Source of the DNA: a virus
IMG/VR virus record: IMGVR_UViG_3300045988_067336
Strand: one strand, 5' to 3'
DNA length: 29,780 nucleotides
The notes beneath the pieces were generated by a model, which saw only the letters and a list, made by a program, of their open reading frames with translations, was not told the origin of the DNA and searched no databases. The position numbers and the translations under genes were made by a program. Below, in pieces: positions 2,401 through 29,288 of the stretch; position 1 is the stretch's first letter, and every line of letters begins with the position of its first letter.

Positions 2401-3660
2401 ATGCAGATAGCAAGACCATACCGCGACCTATGGTGGTGGCTCCACACGGAGACACCACCATATCGTTACTACTGTTATTCAGGCGGCCGAGCCTCAGGCA
2501 AAAGCACCGCAGTCGCACAAAGCCTCATCCTCCGAGCCTCCGTACAACCAATCACCGTCCTCTGCGCCAGAGAATTCCAAAACTCCATCACCGACTCCGT
2601 CTACAAGCTCCTCACCGGCACCATCGAAAAATTCGGATTGCAGGGCTTCGAAATCAGACGAGACGGCATCGGCCACATCAACGGCAGCAGTTTCATCTTC
2701 CGCGGCCTTCACGACAACCTCCAATCCATCAAAAGCATCGAAGGCGTCGACGTCTGCTGGGTCGAAGAAGCGCAGACCGTCAGCAAGACAAGCCTGACCA
2801 CACTCATTCCAACCATCCGCAAAACCAATTCCACGATGATCTTCACTTGGAACCCGCTCACCAGCCATGATCCGATCTGGGCATATTTCGTTTCAACGGA
2901 CTCCGAGGAACGACTACGCCAGACATGCCACTGGCACACCACCTTCAACGACGTGCGCCGGCTCCTCAGCCAAGACGTCCTCGACATGGTAGAAGCCGAC
3001 AAGCAGACCGCCGACTACGGGCACGTCTGGCTCGGCCTCCCCTACGCCGACACCGACAACCAGCTCATCAGCGACACCATGATCAACGAAGCCATCCAAC
3101 GCGCGGCAACCGACGGCCCTGTCACCTTCGGCGTCGACGTCGCACGATACGGTAACGACCGCACCGCCCTCACCATCAAAAAAGGCAACCGGATCGAAAC
3201 ACTCGAATCATGGACACACGCAAGCATCGTCGACACAGTCGAACGAATCAGACTCCGCGCATCCCAACACCAGCCGATCGACATCCGCGTCGACGACACA
3301 GGCGTCGGCGGAGGAGTCACCGACCTACTCAAAACATACGGGCTGCCAGTTACCGGCATCAACTACGCCAGCAAAGCCAAAAGCCAGCAATACCCCAACA
3401 TCGCGTCCGAACTATGGTTCGACTTCGCCACCATACTCCCCCAACTCAGCATCAACCCACAATTAGCTGACCTCCCCAAACTCACCACCGAACTCACCAC
3501 ACGCAAATGGCACATAACCAGCCGTAACCAACGGCAAATAGAAAGCAAACAAGACTACAAAGACACCATGAACCTCGGAAGCCCAGACCTCGCCGACAGC
3601 CTGCTACTCGCCTGCTACGAGCCACCGAAACTCCCCTCATGGGATGTCGCAGTATGCTAA
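2401..3660 (+). CDS. terL: Terminase large subunit.
   Basis: Walker A GGRASGKS, Walker B-like VDVCWVEEA, and a C-terminal RNaseH-like nuclease region (FGVDVARYGNDRTAL ... IRVDDTGVGGGV). Confidence 0.9.
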   Translation: MQIARPYRDLWWWLHTETPPYRYYCYSGGRASGKSTAVAQSLILRASVQPITVLCAREFQNSITDSVYKLLTGTIEKFGLQGFEIRRDGIGHINGSSFIFRGLHDNLQSIKSIEGVDVCWVEEAQTVSKTSLTTLIPTIRKTNSTMIFTWNPLTSHDPIWAYFVSTDSEERLRQTCHWHTTFNDVRRLLSQDVLDMVEADKQTADYGHVWLGLPYADTDNQLISDTMINEAIQRAATDGPVTFGVDVARYGNDRTALTIKKGNRIETLESWTHASIVDTVERIRLRASQHQPIDIRVDDTGVGGGVTDLLKTYGLPVTGINYASKAKSQQYPNIASELWFDFATILPQLSINPQLADLPKLTTELTTRKWHITSRNQRQIESKQDYKDTMNLGSPDLADSLLLACYEPPKLPSWDVAVC

Positions 3661-3719: not shown

Positions 3720-5813
3720 ATGACCCTTCTCAACAACATTCGTGCGGGCTTCACAAGCGCCTTCGGCCGTACCAACGCCCCACACACCGAACCCACCCCA
3801 GCAGGCGGCAACACATGGCAGCCAATGGGCGGCAACACCATCCCCATGCACGACACGTACGACAACATCTTCCCCTACGTCAACGCCATTGCACAACGCT
3901 TCAGCACAGTAATCCCCTACGCCGTCACCACAGACGGCAGGAAAATCAACCCCGCCCCCACCGCATTAAACGCACTATACGCACCAAACGACACCTACAG
4001 CTGTCTCGAATTCCTCAAACTCATCGCCTCCGGCATCCTCACCCAATCCCACGTCGACATCCTCGTCTGGACCACGGAAGGCCCCGGCGGTAACATCACC
4101 CCAGACAACATCGCCGGCTACACCATCCTCCCCACAAACAGCCGCGTATACAACGACAGCCGCAGCGACTGGTACCACCGCGTAACCATGGACCTCGGCA
4201 ACGGCCCCCACCCATACGAATTCACCCGCGACGAAACCATCGCATTAAGCTACAGCCGTCACCCCAACGACCCAACCCGAGGCATCAGCCCCGCCATGAC
4301 CATCAAAAAATGGGCCAACGTCGACGACATGATCGCAGACTACGAACGCGGCTTCTTCGGCAACAACGCCGTCCCCGCAGGCATGCTCGGCATCGTCTCA
4401 GAAAACGCCGAAGACTTCCAACGCAACCGCGCACGCCTCGAAGAAACCTTCCGCGGAGCCGGCAACAACAACGGCATCGTCTACAACATGGTCCCAGTCG
4501 ACCCAATGACCCACAAGCCAAGCCAAACCAGCAAACTCGTCTGGGTCCCATTCCAGAACTCCAACGACACACTCGACCTGCAAACCGTATCCAACGTCGT
4601 CAACAACCGCCTAGCCAACGCGCTCGCCGTCCCCGACATCATCCGAGGCATCGACAACGGCCAAACCTACGCCAACGCCGAAATGGCCGAACGCGCCTTC
4701 ATCGAAAACACCCTCAGACCCCTCTGCATGACAGTATGGGACAAATGGCAGTTCGAACTCGACCGCATCACCGGCGGCCTCGGCTACGGCATCACCTTCA
4801 CCCTCGACCTCCCCGCCCAAACCGAAGTCGAGAAAGCACAAGCGGAAACCCAACAGATCCGCGTCAGCAGCCTCATCCAACTCGTCAACATGGGAGCTAC
4901 GGTCGAAAGCGCAGTCGAAGCACTAGGCCTCCCCGAACCCTACAAGCGACTCCACCTCCACCAGACCGACACACCACAACTCCCCCACCTCCCCTCAAAG
5001 AGAAACACCACGAAAGCCACCAAAAAAACAGACGACATGACAACCGAAAGCCAAATACTGCCAGCAACCCGCACATACGTCGACAGAGTCATCCGCCTCA
5101 CCCGACGCTCCCAAAACGGACTGAAAGACAACCTCGAAACAATCAGCCGCCAATGGGCCAACGACGTAGAAGACACCCTCATCACCCACCTCACGGAATA
5201 CGCCCGCAACACCGGCATAAAACTCGAACAGATCCTCACCGCATGGGCCGAACTCCACCCGGAAACCCCCATCGCCATCGACATCCAGTCCTACACGACC
5301 ACCGACTGGCAGAAACTCTACGACTGGACAACCCTGCCCGACAACATCAAAACAGCCTACGAAACCCACCTCCAGGAAATAGCCGACACGACATCCAAGA
5401 CCATCACCAGCAAAACCCTGGAACTCCTGAACCAAGCCGACATGGAACAATGGACCGCACACCGACTAAACGACGAACTAGCCAGAATGGGTAACGACCA
5501 CGCCGAACTAATAGCAAGATGCGAAACCGTCCAATCCCAAAGACTCGGAAGCCTATACAGCGCCCGTAACCTCAGCGAAACATTAGGCGTCAGACTCCAG
5601 AAAGTATGGCGTACCACCGGAGACGGCAACACGTGCGACTTCTGCCGGCACATGGAAGGCACGACCATACCCCTCGACTCCGCCTACATGGCAAAGGACG
5701 CGGTCGTCAACATCGGCGACCGCACCTACACCAACAGCTTCGAAACCATGAGCACGCCGAACGGCCATCCACGATGCCGCTGCTACGAAGACTACGAAGT
5801 CGTGGAAGACTAA
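3720..5813 (+). CDS. Portal protein fused to a MuF/SPP1 gp7-like minor head (head morphogenesis) domain.
   Basis: The N-terminal ~470 aa are portal-like (GISPAMTIKKWANVDDMIADYERGFFGNNAVPAGML...). The C-terminus carries the MuF signature TGDGNTCDFCRHMEGTTIPLD...NGHPRCRCYEDYEV. Confidence 0.8.
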   Translation: MTLLNNIRAGFTSAFGRTNAPHTEPTPAGGNTWQPMGGNTIPMHDTYDNIFPYVNAIAQRFSTVIPYAVTTDGRKINPAPTALNALYAPNDTYSCLEFLKLIASGILTQSHVDILVWTTEGPGGNITPDNIAGYTILPTNSRVYNDSRSDWYHRVTMDLGNGPHPYEFTRDETIALSYSRHPNDPTRGISPAMTIKKWANVDDMIADYERGFFGNNAVPAGMLGIVSENAEDFQRNRARLEETFRGAGNNNGIVYNMVPVDPMTHKPSQTSKLVWVPFQNSNDTLDLQTVSNVVNNRLANALAVPDIIRGIDNGQTYANAEMAERAFIENTLRPLCMTVWDKWQFELDRITGGLGYGITFTLDLPAQTEVEKAQAETQQIRVSSLIQLVNMGATVESAVEALGLPEPYKRLHLHQTDTPQLPHLPSKRNTTKATKKTDDMTTESQILPATRTYVDRVIRLTRRSQNGLKDNLETISRQWANDVEDTLITHLTEYARNTGIKLEQILTAWAELHPETPIAIDIQSYTTTDWQKLYDWTTLPDNIKTAYETHLQEIADTTSKTITSKTLELLNQADMEQWTAHRLNDELARMGNDHAELIARCETVQSQRLGSLYSARNLSETLGVRLQKVWRTTGDGNTCDFCRHMEGTTIPLDSAYMAKDAVVNIGDRTYTNSFETMSTPNGHPRCRCYEDYEVVED

Positions 5814-17897: not shown

Positions 17898-18740
17898 ATG
17901 TCATATGAATATATTACGAAATATGATAGTCCGAATTATACGAGTGGTCGCCCGTATGGGATCAAGTATATTGTGATCCACTGGTGGGGTGACCCGAACA
18001 CTCATCCGACGTTCGAGGGTGTGATCAATACCCTGTGCAGTAAGGCTCGTGGCGCTTCTGCGCATTACGTGGTCGAGGCCGGCCGTGTGGCCTGTATTGT
18101 GGATCCGGATGATCGTGCGTGGCATGCCGGTGATGGTGTCGGTGTCCGTTCGAAGGGCAATGACATGGGTATTGGCATTGAATGTAATCCTCGTCAGTCG
18201 GATGGGGATTATCTGACTGTCGCTCAGCTGATTCGTGACTTGCGTGTCGAGTATGGTGATTTGCCGTTGATTCGTCACCGGGATTGCTATAACACGCAGT
18301 GTCCAGGCTCGTATGATTTGGATCGTTTGGATCGTTTGTCTCGTGGTTTGGCGGCTCCGTCGAATCCGGTGCCTACTCAACCGGCTACGCAGTCGGTGAC
18401 CAGGCTTGAAGTGGATGGATCTTGGGGGCCGTTGACGATGCGTCGTGCTCAGGAGGTTGCTGGCACGTCGGTGGATGGTGTCATGTCCGGTCAGATTCGT
18501 TGTTTGGAGAATCAGAATATCGCCTGTTTGGAGGAGGGTACTTCCGGTAGTGATTGGGTTGAGTGGATGTCTCACCGTTTTGGTATTACCGATCGTCCGC
18601 GTAATGCTGGCCCGGAGTTCATTCACCGGTTCCTTATGGAGATGAACGGGTATGCTGGTGATGGGATGATTGGTTCGGCTCCTTCGCCGGCTGTCGTAGA
18701 ATTCCAGAAGCGGCTTAATGATGGTCGTATTTTCAACTGA
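17898..18740 (+). CDS. Endolysin: an N-acetylmuramoyl-L-alanine amidase (Amidase_2/PGRP) with a C-terminal cell-wall-binding region.
   Basis: IVIHWWGDP ... SAHYVV ... RAWHAGD ... IGIECNP ... HRDCYNTQCPG are typical of the amidase_2 zinc site. The C-terminus has DGSWGPLTMRRAQ and DGMIGSAPSPAVVEFQKRLN, which are PG-binding-like repeats. The RBS is aaaggag. Confidence 0.85.
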   Translation: MSYEYITKYDSPNYTSGRPYGIKYIVIHWWGDPNTHPTFEGVINTLCSKARGASAHYVVEAGRVACIVDPDDRAWHAGDGVGVRSKGNDMGIGIECNPRQSDGDYLTVAQLIRDLRVEYGDLPLIRHRDCYNTQCPGSYDLDRLDRLSRGLAAPSNPVPTQPATQSVTRLEVDGSWGPLTMRRAQEVAGTSVDGVMSGQIRCLENQNIACLEEGTSGSDWVEWMSHRFGITDRPRNAGPEFIHRFLMEMNGYAGDGMIGSAPSPAVVEFQKRLNDGRIFN

Positions 18741-18755
18741 TTGAAAGGATTGTTT

Positions 18756-19055
18756 ATGGCTAAGCATGTAGTGTTGGCTGATGATGGGCTGACTGGCGAG
18801 CCGACGGCTGATACCGCTATCACGAATGAGTGTGCTGACGGGTCGGATAATTACGTGCCTACGTTCGATGCTGAGACTCGTCGTTGGGCGTATCTGGTGT
18901 CCGGACTGGTGGGTATTGCCGGTGCTGTCGCGAGCCTTGTGAGTGCGGTTCCGGGTGTCCCGTCGTGGGTTGCCGTGGTTGGTGGTGCTTGTGCGCTGGT
19001 CGGTTCCGGTGTGGCTGGCTTGTTTGGCGTGCATTATGCTGGCGTGAGCCGCTAG
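18756..19055 (+). CDS. Holin-like membrane protein.
   Basis: Two hydrophobic segments (WAYLVSGLVGIAGAVASLVSAV and WVAVVGGACALVGSGVAGLFGV). It lies directly after the endolysin. The RBS gaaagga precedes the ATG at 18756. Confidence 0.6.
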   Translation: MAKHVVLADDGLTGEPTADTAITNECADGSDNYVPTFDAETRRWAYLVSGLVGIAGAVASLVSAVPGVPSWVAVVGGACALVGSGVAGLFGVHYAGVSR

Positions 19056-21758: not shown

Positions 21759-22352
21759 TCACATTCTGTTGATGGCGTCCATGAGTTTGGACAGGTCTGC
21801 TTGGGTGATTCCTCGCCAGCCTTTGACGGGCCGGTTGAGTGTGCCGCTGATGAATTCGCCGCGTGCTTCGCTGGGGATGGAGTGCGTGTCCATCGCTTTG
21901 ACGAGCGTGGCGTACTGGTCGGCTCCGATCGGTTTGTCGGCGGTTTCGTACTGCTGTCGGGCGTAGCTGCCGTCGTCGTCCTTGTCGGGGAAGATGCCTA
22001 GGACGGTGGTGAGGCTGTAGCGTCGTGCGTAGGTGATGGCGCTGCCGACCTGTTGCGGGTCGCCTGTTACGAAGAATGGGTATTCGCAGACCGTCATCCG
22101 GTCGGTGTCGTCGAAGATGATGGTTTCGATGGTGCCGAGGATCTGGCGTCCGTCTCCGTGGCCGTCGAAGGTCACTTTTTGGGTGAATGCGAGCCCGTGC
22201 TTTTCGAAGATTGGCTTGATGTTTTTGAGGAGGGTGGCGAGGTTGAGGTACTTGTAGGTACGGCTTCCGGCGTTGGCGGTTTCGTCAGTGCTGAAGTTCG
22301 GGACTTCGTTGAGGACTTCGGCGAATTTCCGGTTGAGGCTGCTGTTTTCCAT
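21759..22352 (-). CDS. ERF-family single-strand annealing protein.
   Basis: YKYLNLATLLKNIKPIFEKHGLAFTQ and GSAITYARRYSLTTVLGIFPDKDDDG are hallmark ERF motifs. Confidence 0.85.
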   Translation of the reverse strand: MENSSLNRKFAEVLNEVPNFSTDETANAGSRTYKYLNLATLLKNIKPIFEKHGLAFTQKVTFDGHGDGRQILGTIETIIFDDTDRMTVCEYPFFVTGDPQQVGSAITYARRYSLTTVLGIFPDKDDDGSYARQQYETADKPIGADQYATLVKAMDTHSIPSEARGEFISGTLNRPVKGWRGITQADLSKLMDAINRM

Positions 22353-24778: not shown

Positions 24779-25624
24779 TCATAGGCCGAGAAGTCTTGCC
24801 ATGTCGGCTGAATCGTTGCGGAGCTTCTTTTCTCGCCTGTCAGCGCCTTTCACTTCGATCGGGACGCACATTTCGAGCAGTCGTGAATAGATGCGTTTCC
24901 TGTCGATGGAGCCGGGTTCTTTCAGGTCGGCTTGTGTGAGGTTGGATGTTACGATGAGTGGTTTTCCGCTCCGGTATCGGGAGTCGATAATGTTGAAGAT
25001 CATTTCGTTCATGTAGGATGTGTCGCGTTCCGCGGCCAAGTCGTCGATTACGAGCAGATCCAGACGGTTGAAGTCGTCGAGGTAGCGTTGCTTGCCGTCG
25101 AACATTCCTTGGAGAGTGTTTGTGATCCTAGCGAAGTTGGTTACGAGGCATGGACGGCCCTGACTGATGAGTTCGTTGGCGATGCATGCGGCCGCGTACG
25201 TCTTGCCGGTGCCGACTGGGCCATATAGAAGTAGTCCTTTGCCGCGTTTCTTCATTTCGGCGAAGTTGTCGACGTATTTGCGGGAGATGCTCGTGGTTTT
25301 CGGGTCGGTTCCGTCGTCGTGGGCGAAGGTCCAGTCGGCCATTTCACTGTCGGGGAAGCCGAGTTTGCGGAGTCGGTTTACTTCGATGCGGAGGTTTTGT
25401 GCCTGTCGTGCTTGTTCTTCGGCGTCACGGCGTTCGTGTGCACAGTCGCAGAGTGTGTATGGCTTCTTTTCCTTGCCGTCCCATTTGGCGATGAAGCGGC
25501 ATTGTTTTGGCGTGTGGCATTTGCCGCACATGAGTAGGCCGTCTTCGTTGAGGTAGTCGCCTTTCTCGTAGTGGCTGTCCTGGCTTGCTTCGCGAACCAT
25601 GTTCTCGATGAGGTTGGTTTCCAT
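24779..25624 (-). CDS. DnaC/IstB-like AAA+ helicase loader.
   Basis: Walker A GLLLYGPVGTGKTYAA, Walker B LLVIDDLAAE, and a sensor-like LIVTSNL. The N-terminus has a zinc-ribbon-like CGKC...CDC. Confidence 0.85.
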   Translation of the reverse strand: METNLIENMVREASQDSHYEKGDYLNEDGLLMCGKCHTPKQCRFIAKWDGKEKKPYTLCDCAHERRDAEEQARQAQNLRIEVNRLRKLGFPDSEMADWTFAHDDGTDPKTTSISRKYVDNFAEMKKRGKGLLLYGPVGTGKTYAAACIANELISQGRPCLVTNFARITNTLQGMFDGKQRYLDDFNRLDLLVIDDLAAERDTSYMNEMIFNIIDSRYRSGKPLIVTSNLTQADLKEPGSIDRKRIYSRLLEMCVPIEVKGADRREKKLRNDSADMARLLGL

Positions 25625-25698: not shown

Positions 25699-26508
25699 TT
25701 AGAACCAGCCGTTTTCGCGGGTGCATTCGGCTACGTGGCCTTCGGCGTCCTGTGCGATGGACGCGGCGTTCGGGTTGGACAGAACGTTGGGGCGGGTGTT
25801 GGAGCGGGTGTTGAGGTAGCCTTCGAACTTGTTGCCGAAGAGGATGTCCGGGCGGAGATATTGGGACATTTTCGGGTTACCGACCCATTCCGTGGCCTTC
25901 TTGTCGATGACCAGCTTCATATCTTCGACGGTGAAGCCTTCTTTGAGGCGGGCTTTGATGAGTCTGCGTGTGGCTTGCGTTGTTGTCTTGTACTGCGTTC
26001 CGAGCCTGTGGTTCAGGTGGTGGATGACTTCATCGATGTCGTCCGGTTTCTTCGGCTGTGAGGTGGCCTGCGGCTCTGGGATGAGCGGCTGCGGTTCGTC
26101 GGTCGGAGTTTGGAATCGCGTGGTGTCCGCGTTTGCGTTATTGCCCCAAGGGTCCTGTTCAGGGGCCTGTGTGGCTGCCGGGGATTGTGTGGCTGCGTGA
26201 GCCGGCGTGGTTGTGGAGGTCGGCTGGATGGCGGCGTAGTCGACGAGTCGATGGCCGTAGTCGTCCGTGTGGGGGTATTTGGCTAGAAGGCCCTTGTTTA
26301 TGAGTGAGCCGAGTGACCTGTCGACGGTGTCCAGCGAGCAGCCGCACCAGTCGGCGATGTACTTGCGGCTGCCTTTGAATCTGGAGTTTCCGTCTTGAGA
26401 GAAGCCATAGATGAGCGCATAGATGAGTAGCTCGTTGCCTTTGAGGTTGAGCTTGGTGCGCATCCATCCTTGGATTGCGATGAAGTTGTTGTCGTTGACG
26501 GTTGACAT
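25699..26508 (-). CDS. Replisome organiser / replication initiation protein: N-terminal winged helix plus the conserved phage C-terminal domain.
   Basis: The N-terminus LNLKGNELLIYALIYGFSQDGNSRFKGSRKYIADWCGCSLDTVDRSLGSLINKGLL is wHTH-like. The C-terminus IDEVIHHLNHRLGTQYKTTTQATRRLIKARLKEGFTVEDMKLVIDKKATEWVGNPKMSQYLRPDILFGNKFEGYL matches the conserved-phage-C-terminus (DnaD-like) pattern. The SD ggaggg precedes the ATG at 26508. Confidence 0.8.
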   Translation of the reverse strand: MSTVNDNNFIAIQGWMRTKLNLKGNELLIYALIYGFSQDGNSRFKGSRKYIADWCGCSLDTVDRSLGSLINKGLLAKYPHTDDYGHRLVDYAAIQPTSTTTPAHAATQSPAATQAPEQDPWGNNANADTTRFQTPTDEPQPLIPEPQATSQPKKPDDIDEVIHHLNHRLGTQYKTTTQATRRLIKARLKEGFTVEDMKLVIDKKATEWVGNPKMSQYLRPDILFGNKFEGYLNTRSNTRPNVLSNPNAASIAQDAEGHVAECTRENGWF

Positions 26509-26531
26509 GATGTTTCCCTCCGAGGAAAAGT

Positions 26532-26609
26532 GAATCCCACTGACTGCTACCGTCTCCACCCGGTGGCAATCAATGGGATTCGTACCATGTAGGATTATCT
26601 CTCCACGTA
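26532..26609. promoter_or_regulatory. Cluster of inverted repeats in the leader of the replication-initiator gene.
   Basis: gaatccca (26532-26539) pairs with tgggattc (26574-26581), enclosing ccacc-c-ggtgg (26556-26566). ctccac (26591-26596) pairs with gtggag (26604-26609). The half-site CTCCAC(C)/GGTGG(AG) occurs four times. Confidence 0.4.
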
Positions 26610-26642
26610 AGTGGTGGAGCATCTTACATGGCGTATGTCTTC

Positions 26643-26672: not shown

Positions 26673-26963
26673 ACTTATCCGGTTTATCGCATACCAGCTG
26701 AGACTGCCGTAATGGACCATTCTAAGCAGCCCTTTATCCTCAAGCTCTCCAAGGATCTCGGAAACGGCAGACGCGGGCAGTTCCGGAAACATCCGGGGAA
26801 AATCCTCATAGGGCATCCGAACCCAATAACGGCCGTCATGGAAATGGCGCTGTCGCTTCCTCTGACTCCGATAAAAGTCGTAAAGCTGAACGTAGACGGA
26901 CGCCGTGGAAACGCCCAGCCTCTTGGCCACTTTAAGCATGGACTTCGGATCCTTCAAAATCAA
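26658..26963 (-). CDS. DNA-binding protein with an N-terminal HTH and a wHTH-like segment.
   Basis: MLKVAKRLGVSTASVYVQL is an HTH, and SAVSEILGELEDKGLLRMV is a wHTH-like recognition region. Confidence 0.6.
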   Translation of the reverse strand: MILKDPKSMLKVAKRLGVSTASVYVQLYDFYRSQRKRQRHFHDGRYWVRMPYEDFPRMFPELPASAVSEILGELEDKGLLRMVHYGSLSWYAINRISRRVV

Positions 26964-27208
26964 TCCTCCTCAATGAAGGAACTGAAAAGGCTGCGATTGT
27001 AGAGAATGCCGCCAAGCTTCGACAATGCGGTCACCGGATTATCATACTTCCTGCATGCGGTATCCCAAGCCTCAAGGACTTCATCACCACCGAACTTCAT
27101 GCACAGGTCTGAGAAGAACTTACGTGACTTCTGCTCGCCTTCCTCACTGAAGTGGACTCCATACCGTTCGACGAGGGTGTTTCCGATAGTGTCATAAACG
27201 CTCATCAT
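26960..27208 (-). CDS. Hypothetical protein, 82 aa.
   Basis: The ORF has the RBS aaagga and overlaps the downstream start (ATGA-type junction). No motif was recognised. Confidence 0.55.
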   Translation of the reverse strand: MMSVYDTIGNTLVERYGVHFSEEGEQKSRKFFSDLCMKFGGDEVLEAWDTACRKYDNPVTALSKLGGILYNRSLFSSFIEED

Positions 27209-27228
27209 ATGATCCTTTCTTGCTATTG

Positions 27229-27267
27229 CGTTGCTTCAAGTATACTACGAAGCATCGAAAAGCAACG
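27229..27267. promoter_or_regulatory. Operator-like inverted repeat around a palindromic -10-like AGTATACT.
   Basis: cgttgctt (27229-27236) pairs with aagcaacg (27260-27267), flanking agtatact (27239-27246). It lies directly upstream of the 82-aa gene on the minus strand. Confidence 0.35.
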
Positions 27268-27383
27268 AAAAGGTAAGGGGCAGACACTCACCGTCCAACC
27301 TGACCAAACCCTCACTCACGTTCCCCCCGGCCACCGCCATGCCCTGTTTCTTGAGGGAGGGAGCGAGCTTCGGTAGAGAGAGT

Positions 27384-27788
27384 AAGCCTTAAGCACTGAA
27401 AAATTTAAGTGTTTTTCAGGTTAAGGCTTGATGGCTGTTTCCGTCGGTCGGTCGGTCGTACGGCGTCGGTCATAAGAGTGATGCATTACTAACACTGATG
27501 CGGCATACCCCTTCAGATCGCGCTACATCTTTGTTGATGTGGCAGTGTCGGCATCCCTGTTATTCCACTGCCGTCTGAAGGGTCGGTTGAACTTCGCACC
27601 TCTAACGTGAGTATCAACCAACTGTTAGTGGTCGTCCCAATAATCCAAGGCAAGGGCTGTAGCTGGAGAGTGTTATCGTGCCTCCGCACCCAGCTGTACA
27701 TGTTTTTGCATGTACCCGTGGTAGACTGGATTTCGGTTATTGTCAAACCCCATTATAGCACGTCGTGCTGTGGTGGGGTTTTCCTTTT
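27384..27788 (+). ncRNA. Candidate structured non-coding RNA of about 400 nt or more. The 5' end is undefined and the class is unassigned.
   Basis: No credible ORF is present. The region holds a long interrupted hairpin at 27384-27429, a three-way junction (27509-27517 with 27574-27582 enclosing hairpins 27525-27540 and 27541-27572), helices 27585-27590/27614-27619 and 27661-27668/27682-27695, a hairpin at 27696-27715, and a 3' intrinsic terminator. Confidence 0.45.
27745..27788 (+). terminator. Rho-independent terminator on the + strand, inside the leftward arm.
   Basis: aaacccca (27745-27752) pairs with tggggttt (27774-27781), with inner pairing agca/tgct, and is followed by tcctttt. On the minus strand no U-tract follows the stem. 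Confidence 0.7.
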
Positions 27789-28285
27789 ACGCCATCCACG
27801 CATTCCCGGCATTCCTCCCACACGCTTTCCACCACACATGCCTCCAGAACGCACGTAAAGGACCCTCCAACCGATTTTCTAGCCAAACCCGATAACTCGT
27901 TAGGGCCAACCCATGACAGCCCGTCAAAAAGGCCTTCACGCAAGAAAGCGACGTTCCAGCCCAAACAAGCACCGAAAAGCATCGAGAACACCAAGCCGTG
28001 AGAGACCACCCAAGCCAAGCACGGACCAACTCTCCTCCATGCTCCCCTACAGGTCGGGTATCGGGACCAAGGCCCGAAGGGCAACACCGAGGTGAAGCCC
28101 GTATCCTCCTCCTTGCCCAGAGCCATGGAAGAAGCCTCGAAGACATCAGGTCAGACTACATGGCTCCATGTCACGCTCACCGAAGACATCAAGGCTAGGT
28201 TCTCATCGCTCTCGGCTCCCAATCCCCTTGGGTTGGGATTGGCTTCCCTTCGGACACGCCCGCGGCCCCCCGCGGGAGCCGCCTT
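27789..28285 (+). other. Non-coding C+A-rich spacer that ends in GC-rich hairpins.
   Basis: There is no ORF with protein-like composition. The line 27961-28020 contains only 2 T in 60 nt. Helix gagccatg (28120-28127) pairs with catggctc (28159-28166). The direct repeat cgaagacatca occurs at 28138 and 28181. Hairpins: ccaatccc/gggattgg (28219-28242) and cccgcgg-cccc-ccgcggg (28259-28276). Confidence 0.5.
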
Positions 28286-28288
28286 ATT

Positions 28289-28337
28289 TATATTATCCCT
28301 AGAGTATCTAACTCTATATTATCCCTCTATAGTATGG
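28289..28337. repeat. AT-rich segment with two direct repeats, TATATTATCCCT..AGTAT.
   Basis: tatattatccct occurs at 28289-28300 and 28315-28326 (26-bp spacing). Each copy is followed by an agtat element. Confidence 0.8.
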
Positions 28338-28341
28338 TGCC

Positions 28342-28441
28342 TGATTTTGCGGCTATGCCAACACTGATTTTGCGGCTATGCCAACACCGATTTTGCGGCC
28401 ATGCGCCATGAATGTGCGGCCACCACCCTGATTGTGCGGCC
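28342..28441. repeat. Iteron-like direct repeats: two perfect 23-bp tandem copies plus three degenerate copies.
   Basis: tgattttgcggctatgccaacac occurs at 28342-28364 and 28365-28387. The core T(T/G)TGCGGC recurs with GCGGC starting at 28349, 28372, 28395, 28416 and 28436, giving spacings of 23, 23, 21 and 20 bp. Confidence 0.85.
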
Positions 28442-28470
28442 GTCACTTATTGCGTCTGGGTTGACTGAAC

Positions 28471-28493
28471 AAAAAGGCCCCGGCCAGTCCGGG
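28471..28493 (-). terminator. Weak intrinsic terminator after the DUF1064 gene.
   Basis: The minus strand reads CCCGG-actgg-CCGGG followed by gccTTTTTg. The stem is only 5 bp. Confidence 0.35.
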
Positions 28494-28538
28494 AATCTCT
28501 TCCCAAGACCAACCGGGACCATGCCCGTTCCTAGACCG

Positions 28539-28874
28539 TCACGTCTCCTTGATGCTCATACCATACCGTCGCGCGAACAGCTTGCTCTTGAGCCTATACA
28601 CGTCAGTTCTCATGCCTTTCACATCCTCGACGACCTCCTTGCCGTCCTCCACGTAGACGAAGTCGGCCACGTAGTAAACAGGTCGATAATGCCTGCCGTC
28701 CACGTCGAAGGCCGGTACGAGCTCATAACGCACCTGCCGGCGCAGATCCTCGATGCTTCCGTTCTCCTCCATGCCCTTCAGGACGAGATACCTGTCGGCC
28801 TCCATACGCGAGTCGAAGGCAATGCCGTCGACGACGGTTTTCTTCGCGTGATATTTGCTCGCTCCATGCCACAT
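28539..28874 (-). CDS. DUF1064-family protein (predicted PD-(D/E)XK-like nuclease / resolvase-like).
   Basis: SKYHAKKTVVDGIAFDSRMEADRYLVL ... VPAFDVDGRHYRPVYYVADFVYVEDGKEVVEDVKG matches the DUF1064 pattern as I remember it. Confidence 0.7.
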   Translation of the reverse strand: MWHGASKYHAKKTVVDGIAFDSRMEADRYLVLKGMEENGSIEDLRRQVRYELVPAFDVDGRHYRPVYYVADFVYVEDGKEVVEDVKGMRTDVYRLKSKLFARRYGMSIKET

Positions 28875-28877
28875 GGT

Positions 28878-29288
28878 TTACCTTCCGGTGCTTCCGAAGC
28901 CGTTGTCGCCACGCTCCGTCGCGTTGAACGCGGAGACCTGCTCCAACGGTTCGCGGACCACCGGGATCATGACCAGCTGGGTGACCTTGTCCCCCGCCTC
29001 GAACTCATAGTCCTCGGCCCCATGGTTGTAAAGCTTCACCACGATGCTTCCCGTGTACCCCTCGTCGATGAGCCCGGTGCTAGTGATGCCGTGCCTGACG
29101 TTGAGACCGCTCTTGCTGACGAGCAGTCCGGCACACCCGTGAGGCAATGCCACATGCACTCCTGTGTCCACGGCGACGCTTCCGTAGGCCGGTACGGTCA
29201 CGGCCTTCGGCGTGCGCAGGTCCAGTCCGGCATCGGTCCCGTGGCCTCGTGACGGCATGTGCGCTCCGTTGTCCAACATGACTTCCAT
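28878..29288 (-). CDS. dut: dUTP diphosphatase (trimeric dUTPase).
   Basis: The motifs GTDAGLDL, LVSKSGL, GLIDEGYTG, GDKVTQLV and RGDNGFGSTG are present in the canonical order. Confidence 0.9.
   Translation of the reverse strand: MEVMLDNGAHMPSRGHGTDAGLDLRTPKAVTVPAYGSVAVDTGVHVALPHGCAGLLVSKSGLNVRHGITSTGLIDEGYTGSIVVKLYNHGAEDYEFEAGDKVTQLVMIPVVREPLEQVSAFNATERGDNGFGSTGR

Follow-up and report, generated by a model that had tools for sequence, protein, structure and literature searches.

A candidate accessory structured RNA carried as a cassette by human-gut phages

The locus and its phage genome

The window analyzed here, a 29.8-kb stretch of DNA at its full length of 29,780 nucleotides (IMG/VR record IMGVR_UViG_3300045988_067336), is a phage genome with the following genes:

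2401-3660, plus strand, large terminase
3720-5813, plus strand, portal
17898-18740, plus strand, endolysin amidase
21759-22352, minus strand, Erf
24779-25624, minus strand, DnaC-like loader
25699-26622, minus strand, DnaD / Phg_2220_C-type replication protein
28539-28874, minus strand, DUF1064
28878-29288, minus strand, dUTPase

Two leftward genes are separated by a 1.33-kb gap (27209-28538) in which we found no protein-like ORF, in agreement with a preliminary description of this DNA that had called the gap ORF-free; the gene callers used for public assemblies also leave it empty. Five features were recognized within it:

27219..27277, minus strand, palindromic region that likely contains the leftward promoter of the replication operon (inverted repeat I2 and the sequences of relatives)
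27347..27791, plus strand, the whole cassette, an insertion/deletion unit running from TTTCTTGAGGG to GGGGTTTTCCTTTTACG
27797..28280, non-coding backbone block, C/A-rich on the plus strand, present with or without the cassette
28281..28445, AT-rich stretch with iteron-like direct repeats after it (families D1, D3 and D9)
28478-28494, minus strand, terminator ending the upstream operon (terminator scan)

Among GenBank phages, blastn gave no DNA match to the gap and megablast none to the first 25 kb of the window. By portal protein, the nearest cultured relatives are phages of Bifidobacterium asteroides (50% identity), and for the amidase domain of the endolysin the closest counterparts are in actinobacteriophages. 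The relatives originate from human-gut metagenomes, always on contigs of ~30-35 kb and in no instance inside a bacterial genome. The portal and endolysin affinities, together with the human-gut origin, point to a host that is probably a gut actinobacterium such as Bifidobacterium. Searching GTDB genomes with the large terminase returned distant relatives only (≤ 47% identity) and yielded no prophage or host assignment. Elsewhere in the window, an Ant-type anti-repressor is found at 407-1303 (phrog_130, E = 2e-75), and no integrase was recognized among the window proteins scanned, nor were prophage relatives found in bacterial genomes. A 377-aa minus-strand ORF (17901-19034) without a family match, overlapping the plus-strand gene for the 280-aa N-acetylmuramoyl-L-alanine amidase (endolysin), is probably a shadow.

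The non-coding DNA on either side of the cassette has features of its own. To the left, 27219-27277 holds an 18-nt inverted repeat centered on GTATAC, with TTGCTT-N15-TATACT on the minus strand (TGGTATACT in relatives), ~30 nt upstream of where gene 26960-27208 begins; it is a likely early leftward promoter or operator, probably that of the replication operon. To the right, the C/A-rich block spans ~480 nt and is conserved in all relatives at 76-92% identity (80-92% over 33 relatives). We rejected this block (27797-28290) as a gene for its absence of codon periodicity: over 27795-28300 the variable columns number 124, 127 and 120 in the three phases, and gap lengths modulo 3 are distributed as 364 (1), 157 (2) and 2 (0). 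It was also rejected as a second structured RNA, with weak fold z-scores and compensatory changes in only 5 of 63 pairs on the plus strand and 4 of 123 on the minus strand; conceivably, it gives rise to a G-rich transcript running leftward or has a role related to an origin. The hairpin CTCCCAATCCCCTTGGGTTGGGATTG at window 28216-28241 has a weak Rfam match to CRISPR-DR45 (E = 1.9), probably by chance since it is present in a single copy with no array. Farther right, 28281-28445 contains the AT-rich TATATTATCCCT twice and then two sets of direct repeats, 3 x 23 nt (CTGATTTTGCGGCTATGCCAACA) and 2 x 20 nt. In relatives the repeat units at this position are quite different, such as CCCTCATTTTGAGGGT or TTGCAATTTTTGCAG, and the region has the look of an origin or operator that changes its specificity in step with a DNA-binding protein.

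Extent, distribution and coding potential of the cassette

A search of IMG/VR with the two flanking proteins collected 59 loci from 35 contigs; the flanking protein of 82 aa is represented by roughly 310 clusters. By blastn, the whole gap is ~77-85% identical in one subset of contigs, and in the other subset only its ends and 27800-28290 align; the piece absent from the second subset is exactly the RNA flagged in the preliminary description. The cassette is present in 18 of 33 window-like contigs, absent from 14, and reduced in one to a remnant (the first ~50 nt, with an internal deletion). Seven further backbones from ENA/Logan divide into three with the cassette (gap ~1340-1500 nt) and four without it (gap ~850-890 nt). 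Searching with a pattern of the conserved-core DNA located the same cassette in three phages of 35-37 kb, in which nothing beyond the cassette aligns with the window's 2-kb stretch around the gap.

Its boundaries were set by comparing relatives that carry the module with those that lack it, and by these three distant phages, which share only 27347-27791 with the window. The inserted unit, ~445 nt long, begins with TTTCTTGAGGG (27347) and stops where the U-tract of the terminator does (~27791), and its flanks are contiguous in the relatives that lack it. The start proposed earlier, at 27384, has to be moved, with the conserved unit beginning 37 nt further upstream. In the second lineage the cassette has a holin-like gene on one side and an HNH endonuclease gene on the other and is antisense to both; the earlier claim that the RNA runs opposite to its flanking genes holds in the window and in this second genome setting alike. 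Three further degenerate-pattern scans of IMG/VR, directed at more distant members of the family, recovered no contigs beyond those already known except five chance hits, which nhmmer rejected; the RNA pattern had no match in GTDB genomes, and Bifidobacterium asteroides phage BlindUri1 has no homologue of the RNA. Phage morons are accessory cassettes that sit between operons and bring a promoter and a terminator of their own. The cassette is likewise present or absent between close genomes at defined junctions, and on this distribution it is an accessory, mobile unit, moron-like but with a predicted RNA as its product.

Details at individual loci add to the picture of these junctions. At L075 5096-5494 and L077 8529-8927, the cassette adjoins the HNH endonuclease gene. 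This gene is oriented divergently and likely starts ~35 nt from the cassette 5′ end, at MLKACGYCG preceded by the ribosome-binding site GGAGGTG; a ParB-like/methyltransferase gene comes next. At L056 5820-5870 (IMGVR_UViG_3300045988_070004), the first ~50 nt of the cassette are fused to a backbone mini-palindrome, AAGCCTTCAAGGCTT (window ~28183-28197). Recombination of AAGCCTTCAAGGCTT with the similar P1 stem AAGCCTTAAG apparently caused the deletion there, in which both the RNA and the C/A-rich block were lost.

GC skew is ~0 within 27200-27700 and -0.18 to -0.28 at 27600-28100; the balanced composition amid skewed DNA described earlier was recovered, near zero inside the segment and strongly negative to its right. 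No conserved ORF of any size was found in the cassette across homologues. Open frames of at least 40 aa vary in frame, place and length among the 22 homologues, one of which has two only, and ORFs with a common start column encode 12-25 aa, vary in length and are hydrophilic; no conserved short hydrophobic ORF, as expected for a type I toxin-antitoxin system or small peptide, was present in the cassette. The indels are not multiples of three, and no homologous phage examined for an intact protein gene at the locus carried one.

Predicted fold and covariation

The plus strand of 27384-27788 folds at -155 kcal/mol, compared with -120.3 ± 5.4 for shuffled sequences (z = -6.47, 0/100), and the fold of the minus strand gives z = -3.69. 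An alignment of 22 distinct full-length homologues from human-gut phage contigs, 73-90% identical, produced an RNAalifold consensus of 103 pairs. Standard pairs occupy 98.0% of the pair cells, and compensatory double changes occur in 29 of the 103 pairs (covariation score 0.196), although the 22 homologues are related by descent and these counts are not independent events. Control alignments in which the 3′ partners were slid by 1-3 columns had 31-52% of cells paired and 4-6 pairs with double changes, and none of 500 column shuffles attained the observed values. Consensus fold energy is -106.7 for the plus strand versus -85.9 for the minus strand, and we take the plus strand to be the folded one because G-U cells outnumber A-C cells 296 to 41. 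Judged from these comparisons, the cassette is a structured non-coding RNA element on the plus strand; this was the central proposal of the preliminary description, which had named compensatory changes among homologues as its test. The elements of the predicted structure, from 5′ to 3′ and all on the plus strand, are as follows:

27347..27382, purine-rich 5′ segment, nearly invariant (TTTCTTGAGGGAGGGAGCGAGCTTCGGTAGAGAGAGT), with invariant columns in the alignment
27383..27430, P1, long 5′ hairpin with lower stem AAGCCUUAAG/CUUAAGGCUU and variable upper stem and loop
27432..27472, P2 domain with a (GUCG)n tract; one pair changes CG<->UA in 3 sequences, the rest conserved
27477..27496, P3, hairpin with loop GCAUUAC; column 148/159 is GC in 11, AU in 5 and UA in 3
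27497..27500, 5′ strand (GAUG) of candidate pseudoknot PK1, its partner being the P5c loop CAUC at 27552-27555
27509..27582, P5, three-way junction closed by 27509-27518/27573-27582
27525-27529/27536-27540, P5a
27541-27547/27566-27572, P5b
27548-27551/27556-27559, P5c
27615..27634, P6, hairpin; columns 291/306 are AU in 15 and GC in 7, columns 293/304 GC in 12 and CG in 10
27636..27656, P7, hairpin (CCC...GGG) with one compensatory change, otherwise invariant
27678..27689, P8, hairpin GUGC-CUCC-GCAC; two pairs with compensatory change, loop nearly invariant
27690..27729, P9, variable-length hairpin with a CCAG/CUGG closing stem and an inserted hairpin at 27696-27715
27745..27790, intrinsic terminator, a 17-pair stem then a U-tract (terminator scan)

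Seven helices had been listed in the preliminary description, of which two were wrong. The hairpin at 27384-27429 corresponds to P1, where the lower 10 bp are invariant and the upper part covaries, with compensatory changes in 3 pairs of columns 55-58/72-75 (27398-27401/27414-27417). The three-way junction at 27509-27582, including acatc/gatgt and ggcagtg/cactgcc, covaries strongly; 11 of its pairs are compensatory, for example GGCAG/CUGCC <-> GAUGG/CCAUC. Helix gtacatg/catgtac (27696-27715) turned out to be an insert, found in 5 of the 22 sequences, inside the conserved hairpin P9. The alignment missed P9 because its length varies. Folds of single sequences give the same hairpin, with stems that differ but mutually compensate (CCAAGUAU/AUACUUGG, CCAAAUAU/AUAUUUGG, CCAGUC/GACUGG, CCUGAG/CUCGG, CCAAGC/GCUUGG). 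Of the two helices that failed, ggttga/tcaacc (27585/27614) overlaps the hairpin at 27615-27634, which has true compensatory changes, and agctggag/ctcc..ccagct (27661-27695) is not conserved, the comparative helices there being GUGC/GCAC at 27678-27689 and CCAG/CUGG at 27690-27729.

The candidate pseudoknot PK1 emerged from an extra-stem scan, with column 165/227 GC in 14 sequences, AU in 6 and other in 2, and 96.6% of cells paired. Informative variation was never seen in the lower P1 stem, in P4, or in the long-range helices 27348-27353/27664-27669, 27374-27378/27600-27604 and 27501-27504/27586-27589, the first two of which would join the 5′ segment to 27664-27669 and 27600-27604; the columns are invariant, or their only changes are transitions facing G or U. 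The P8 loop CUCC (27682-27685) resembles an anti-Shine-Dalgarno sequence. At the 3′ end, a stem at 27745-27781 with the tail TCCTTTT has the form of a Rho-independent terminator. It is kept in all 22 sequences with 4 compensatory pairs and many G-U substitutions, and the same element is found in L077. The terminator scan detected none on the minus strand at 27745-27781. The plus-strand terminator called earlier at 27745-27788 was upheld, as both conserved and covarying. Together, P9 and this terminator (T) form two tandem terminator-like hairpins at the 3′ end of the cassette. As a separate observation, the pentamer GTCGG occurs in 6 copies in the 444-nt cassette versus ~0.4 expected, with three of them making a tandem (GGTC)n tract (window 27441-27476); it may be a repeated protein-binding motif.

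The 5′ end admits two readings. The first 36 nt of the cassette are almost invariant and occur in a single copy in the phage genome, and no sigma-70-type promoter was found upstream of the cassette in the window or in two homologues. The segment 27347-27382 could be either an atypical promoter with an RNA start near 27383, or part of the RNA with a promoter that went unrecognized. Changes within it (A->G at 27375, T->C at 27374 and C<->T at 27369-27371) would damage a -10 box and keep the proposed pairs. A candidate promoter TTGAGG-N17-TAGAGA was rejected because 6 sequences have G in place of its critical A and one has C in place of the T, changes that also keep the proposed RNA pairs. Three other candidates were set aside as well: TGGTATACT / TGGTAGACT (27719-27727) as an extended -10 promoter is not the main reading, being the 3′ strand of covarying P9; the conserved 5′ motif occurs once in the genome and is not a repeated phage promoter; and the AAGCCTT..AAGGCTT palindrome has degenerate copies only, not those of a repeated operator.

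Proposed function and comparison with known systems

We searched Rfam 15, whose 4227 models include ROOL, GOLLD, HEARO, OLE, raiA, 6S, RNase P, tmRNA, group I/II introns, T-box, riboswitches, 6C and RNAIII, and found no match at gathering thresholds in the whole window. At E ≤ 10, the region 27100-28650 had two chance hits only, CRISPR-DR45 (E = 1.9) outside the cassette and drum (E = 7.1) on the minus strand, and seven homologue loci gave nothing relevant. ARAGORN predicted 0 tRNA or tmRNA genes in the window. In both contexts the next genes are on the opposite strand, which does not fit a riboswitch or cis leader, and no repeat longer than 12 nt, such as the template RNA of a diversity-generating retroelement would share with its target gene, occurs elsewhere in the genome. 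Like the preliminary description, we could assign the element to no known class; with no catalogued RNA family matched, the cassette RNA would add a new family to a kind already known, the structured RNAs that phages carry as accessories.

The reading that we favor, and regard as moderately probable, is that the cassette is a self-contained gene for a trans-acting accessory structured RNA of ~410-445 nt with its own terminator. A plus-strand transcript of this length would end at the intrinsic terminator and would fold into the 5′ hairpin P1, a central three-way-junction domain, and the 3′ hairpin series P6-P9, with the hairpin loop of the P5 junction probably forming a pseudoknot with the preceding junction strand. 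The cassette would move between phage genomes as a unit, as morons do, with RNA instead of protein. Its RNA would act in trans via its three-dimensional fold; most likely it would bind or sequester some macromolecule of the host or the phage during infection, with hairpin P8, whose CCUCC loop is invariant, and the conserved sequences of the junction as candidate contact sites. We infer action in trans because the cassette appears to work the same way in two unrelated genome positions without a sense-strand gene downstream, because its complementarity to the phage's own genome does not exceed chance 12-mers, and because invariant junctions and loops lie around covarying stems. It is possible, though doubtful, that the cassette encodes a hitherto unrecognized class of large phage RNA whose function lies in the RNA alone, as a ribozyme, a self-assembling particle like ROOL/GOLLD, or a decoy against a host defence or translation factor.

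Other explanations give the cassette a role at its own locus. Transcription against the flanking leftward operons could block or modulate read-through from one to the other, by interference or by duplexes with read-through mRNA, the RNA having no function off-locus. The cassette does oppose the genes on both sides in both independent contexts, and in the window it is located between the minus-strand terminator at 28478-28494 and the likely leftward promoter at ~27240-27275. Interference, however, needs a promoter and a terminator only, leaving ~350 nt of conserved fold and its compensatory changes, a pseudoknot and invariant junctions unexplained, and about half of otherwise similar phages are without the cassette; we therefore consider such a cis-acting antisense or insulator role unlikely. 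A link to replication, either as an origin-proximal RNA (primer or activator of an iteron origin) or as an sso-like ssDNA initiation signal, also seems rather improbable. The window cassette is in a non-coding region with an AT-rich stretch and iterons, between replication genes; sso-type signals of rolling-circle replicons are strand-specific and modular, and G-T pairs are tolerated in DNA hairpins. Yet in the second lineage the cassette is far from any such repeats, with lysis and packaging genes on its two sides, the 14 of 33 relatives that dispense with it retain the iteron region, and a conserved covarying 3′ hairpin with a U-tract is a feature of transcription and not of a DNA origin.

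The order of a structured domain followed by a terminator, the two tandem terminator-like hairpins P9 and T, and the conserved non-coding block that comes next in the window lineage are what one might expect of a cis-regulatory leader, in which a large sensor domain governs read-through of its own terminator into the C/A-rich block and the origin region. We judge this very improbable, as neither context has a downstream sense-strand gene, a convergent gene is directly next in the second lineage, the downstream block is equally conserved in phages without the cassette, and no Rfam riboswitch or leader matched. Scarcely credible is the encoding of a small protein or toxin with the apparent structure as a by-product. 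Mechanical ORFs do overlap the segment (27513-27746 on the minus strand and 27607-27858 on the plus strand), but the frames differ in frame, position and length from homologue to homologue, the shared-start ORFs of 12-25 aa are of variable length and not hydrophobic, and the indels are not multiples of three.

Few RNAs in biology are understood as little as the large structured ones of phages, ROOL and GOLLD for instance, and few families of them are known. If the trans-acting RNA gene is the correct reading, the cassette RNA would be one more family, unrelated to these, and its carriers are abundant phages of the human gut whose hosts are probably Bifidobacterium-like actinobacteria. The occurrence of the cassette in some close relatives and its lack in others, along with its second context, amount to a natural experiment that could reveal what is gained from a 440-nt RNA; given this presence/absence polymorphism in near-isogenic gut phages, the function of the cassette RNA is directly testable.

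Among known systems, Staphylococcus aureus RNAIII and the actinobacterial 6C RNA are Gram-positive multi-hairpin regulatory RNAs with C-rich loops. The predicted cassette RNA is similarly long, with many hairpins and a terminator at its end, and its one invariant CUCC loop could pair with a Shine-Dalgarno sequence. Unlike them, it has only one such loop and shares no homology with either, neither Rfam model having matched; we read the resemblance as analogy rather than membership. In the screen of IMG/VR v3 by Fremin et al. (2023), candidate structured RNA motifs measured 29-151 nt, with a mean of 67 (PMC10690425). The cassette, like those candidates, comes from intergenic DNA of IMG/VR phages and has covariation evidence, whereas no 400-nt RNA is described in that screen; fragments of the cassette RNA, such as the terminator, may yet overlap with its motifs.

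ROOL and GOLLD, ornate RNAs found in phages and prophages alike, are phage-borne, accessory non-coding RNAs of several hundred nt, multi-helix with pseudoknots and of unknown function (PMC12286853). The cassette RNA shares with them its large size, multi-helix fold, candidate pseudoknot, non-coding nature, and phage-borne, accessory occurrence. It differs in having no Rfam model match even at E ≤ 10, in its smaller size (~430 nt) without neighboring tRNA genes, and in its narrow range of two human-gut phage lineages. Measured against morons, the cassette has no recognized promoter of its own, and its predicted product is a structured RNA, not protein. Like morons, it is a sharp-junction insertion between two operons with its own terminator and an orientation independent of its neighbors, suggesting that what a 'moron' brings along as accessory cargo may be not a protein but a complex RNA.
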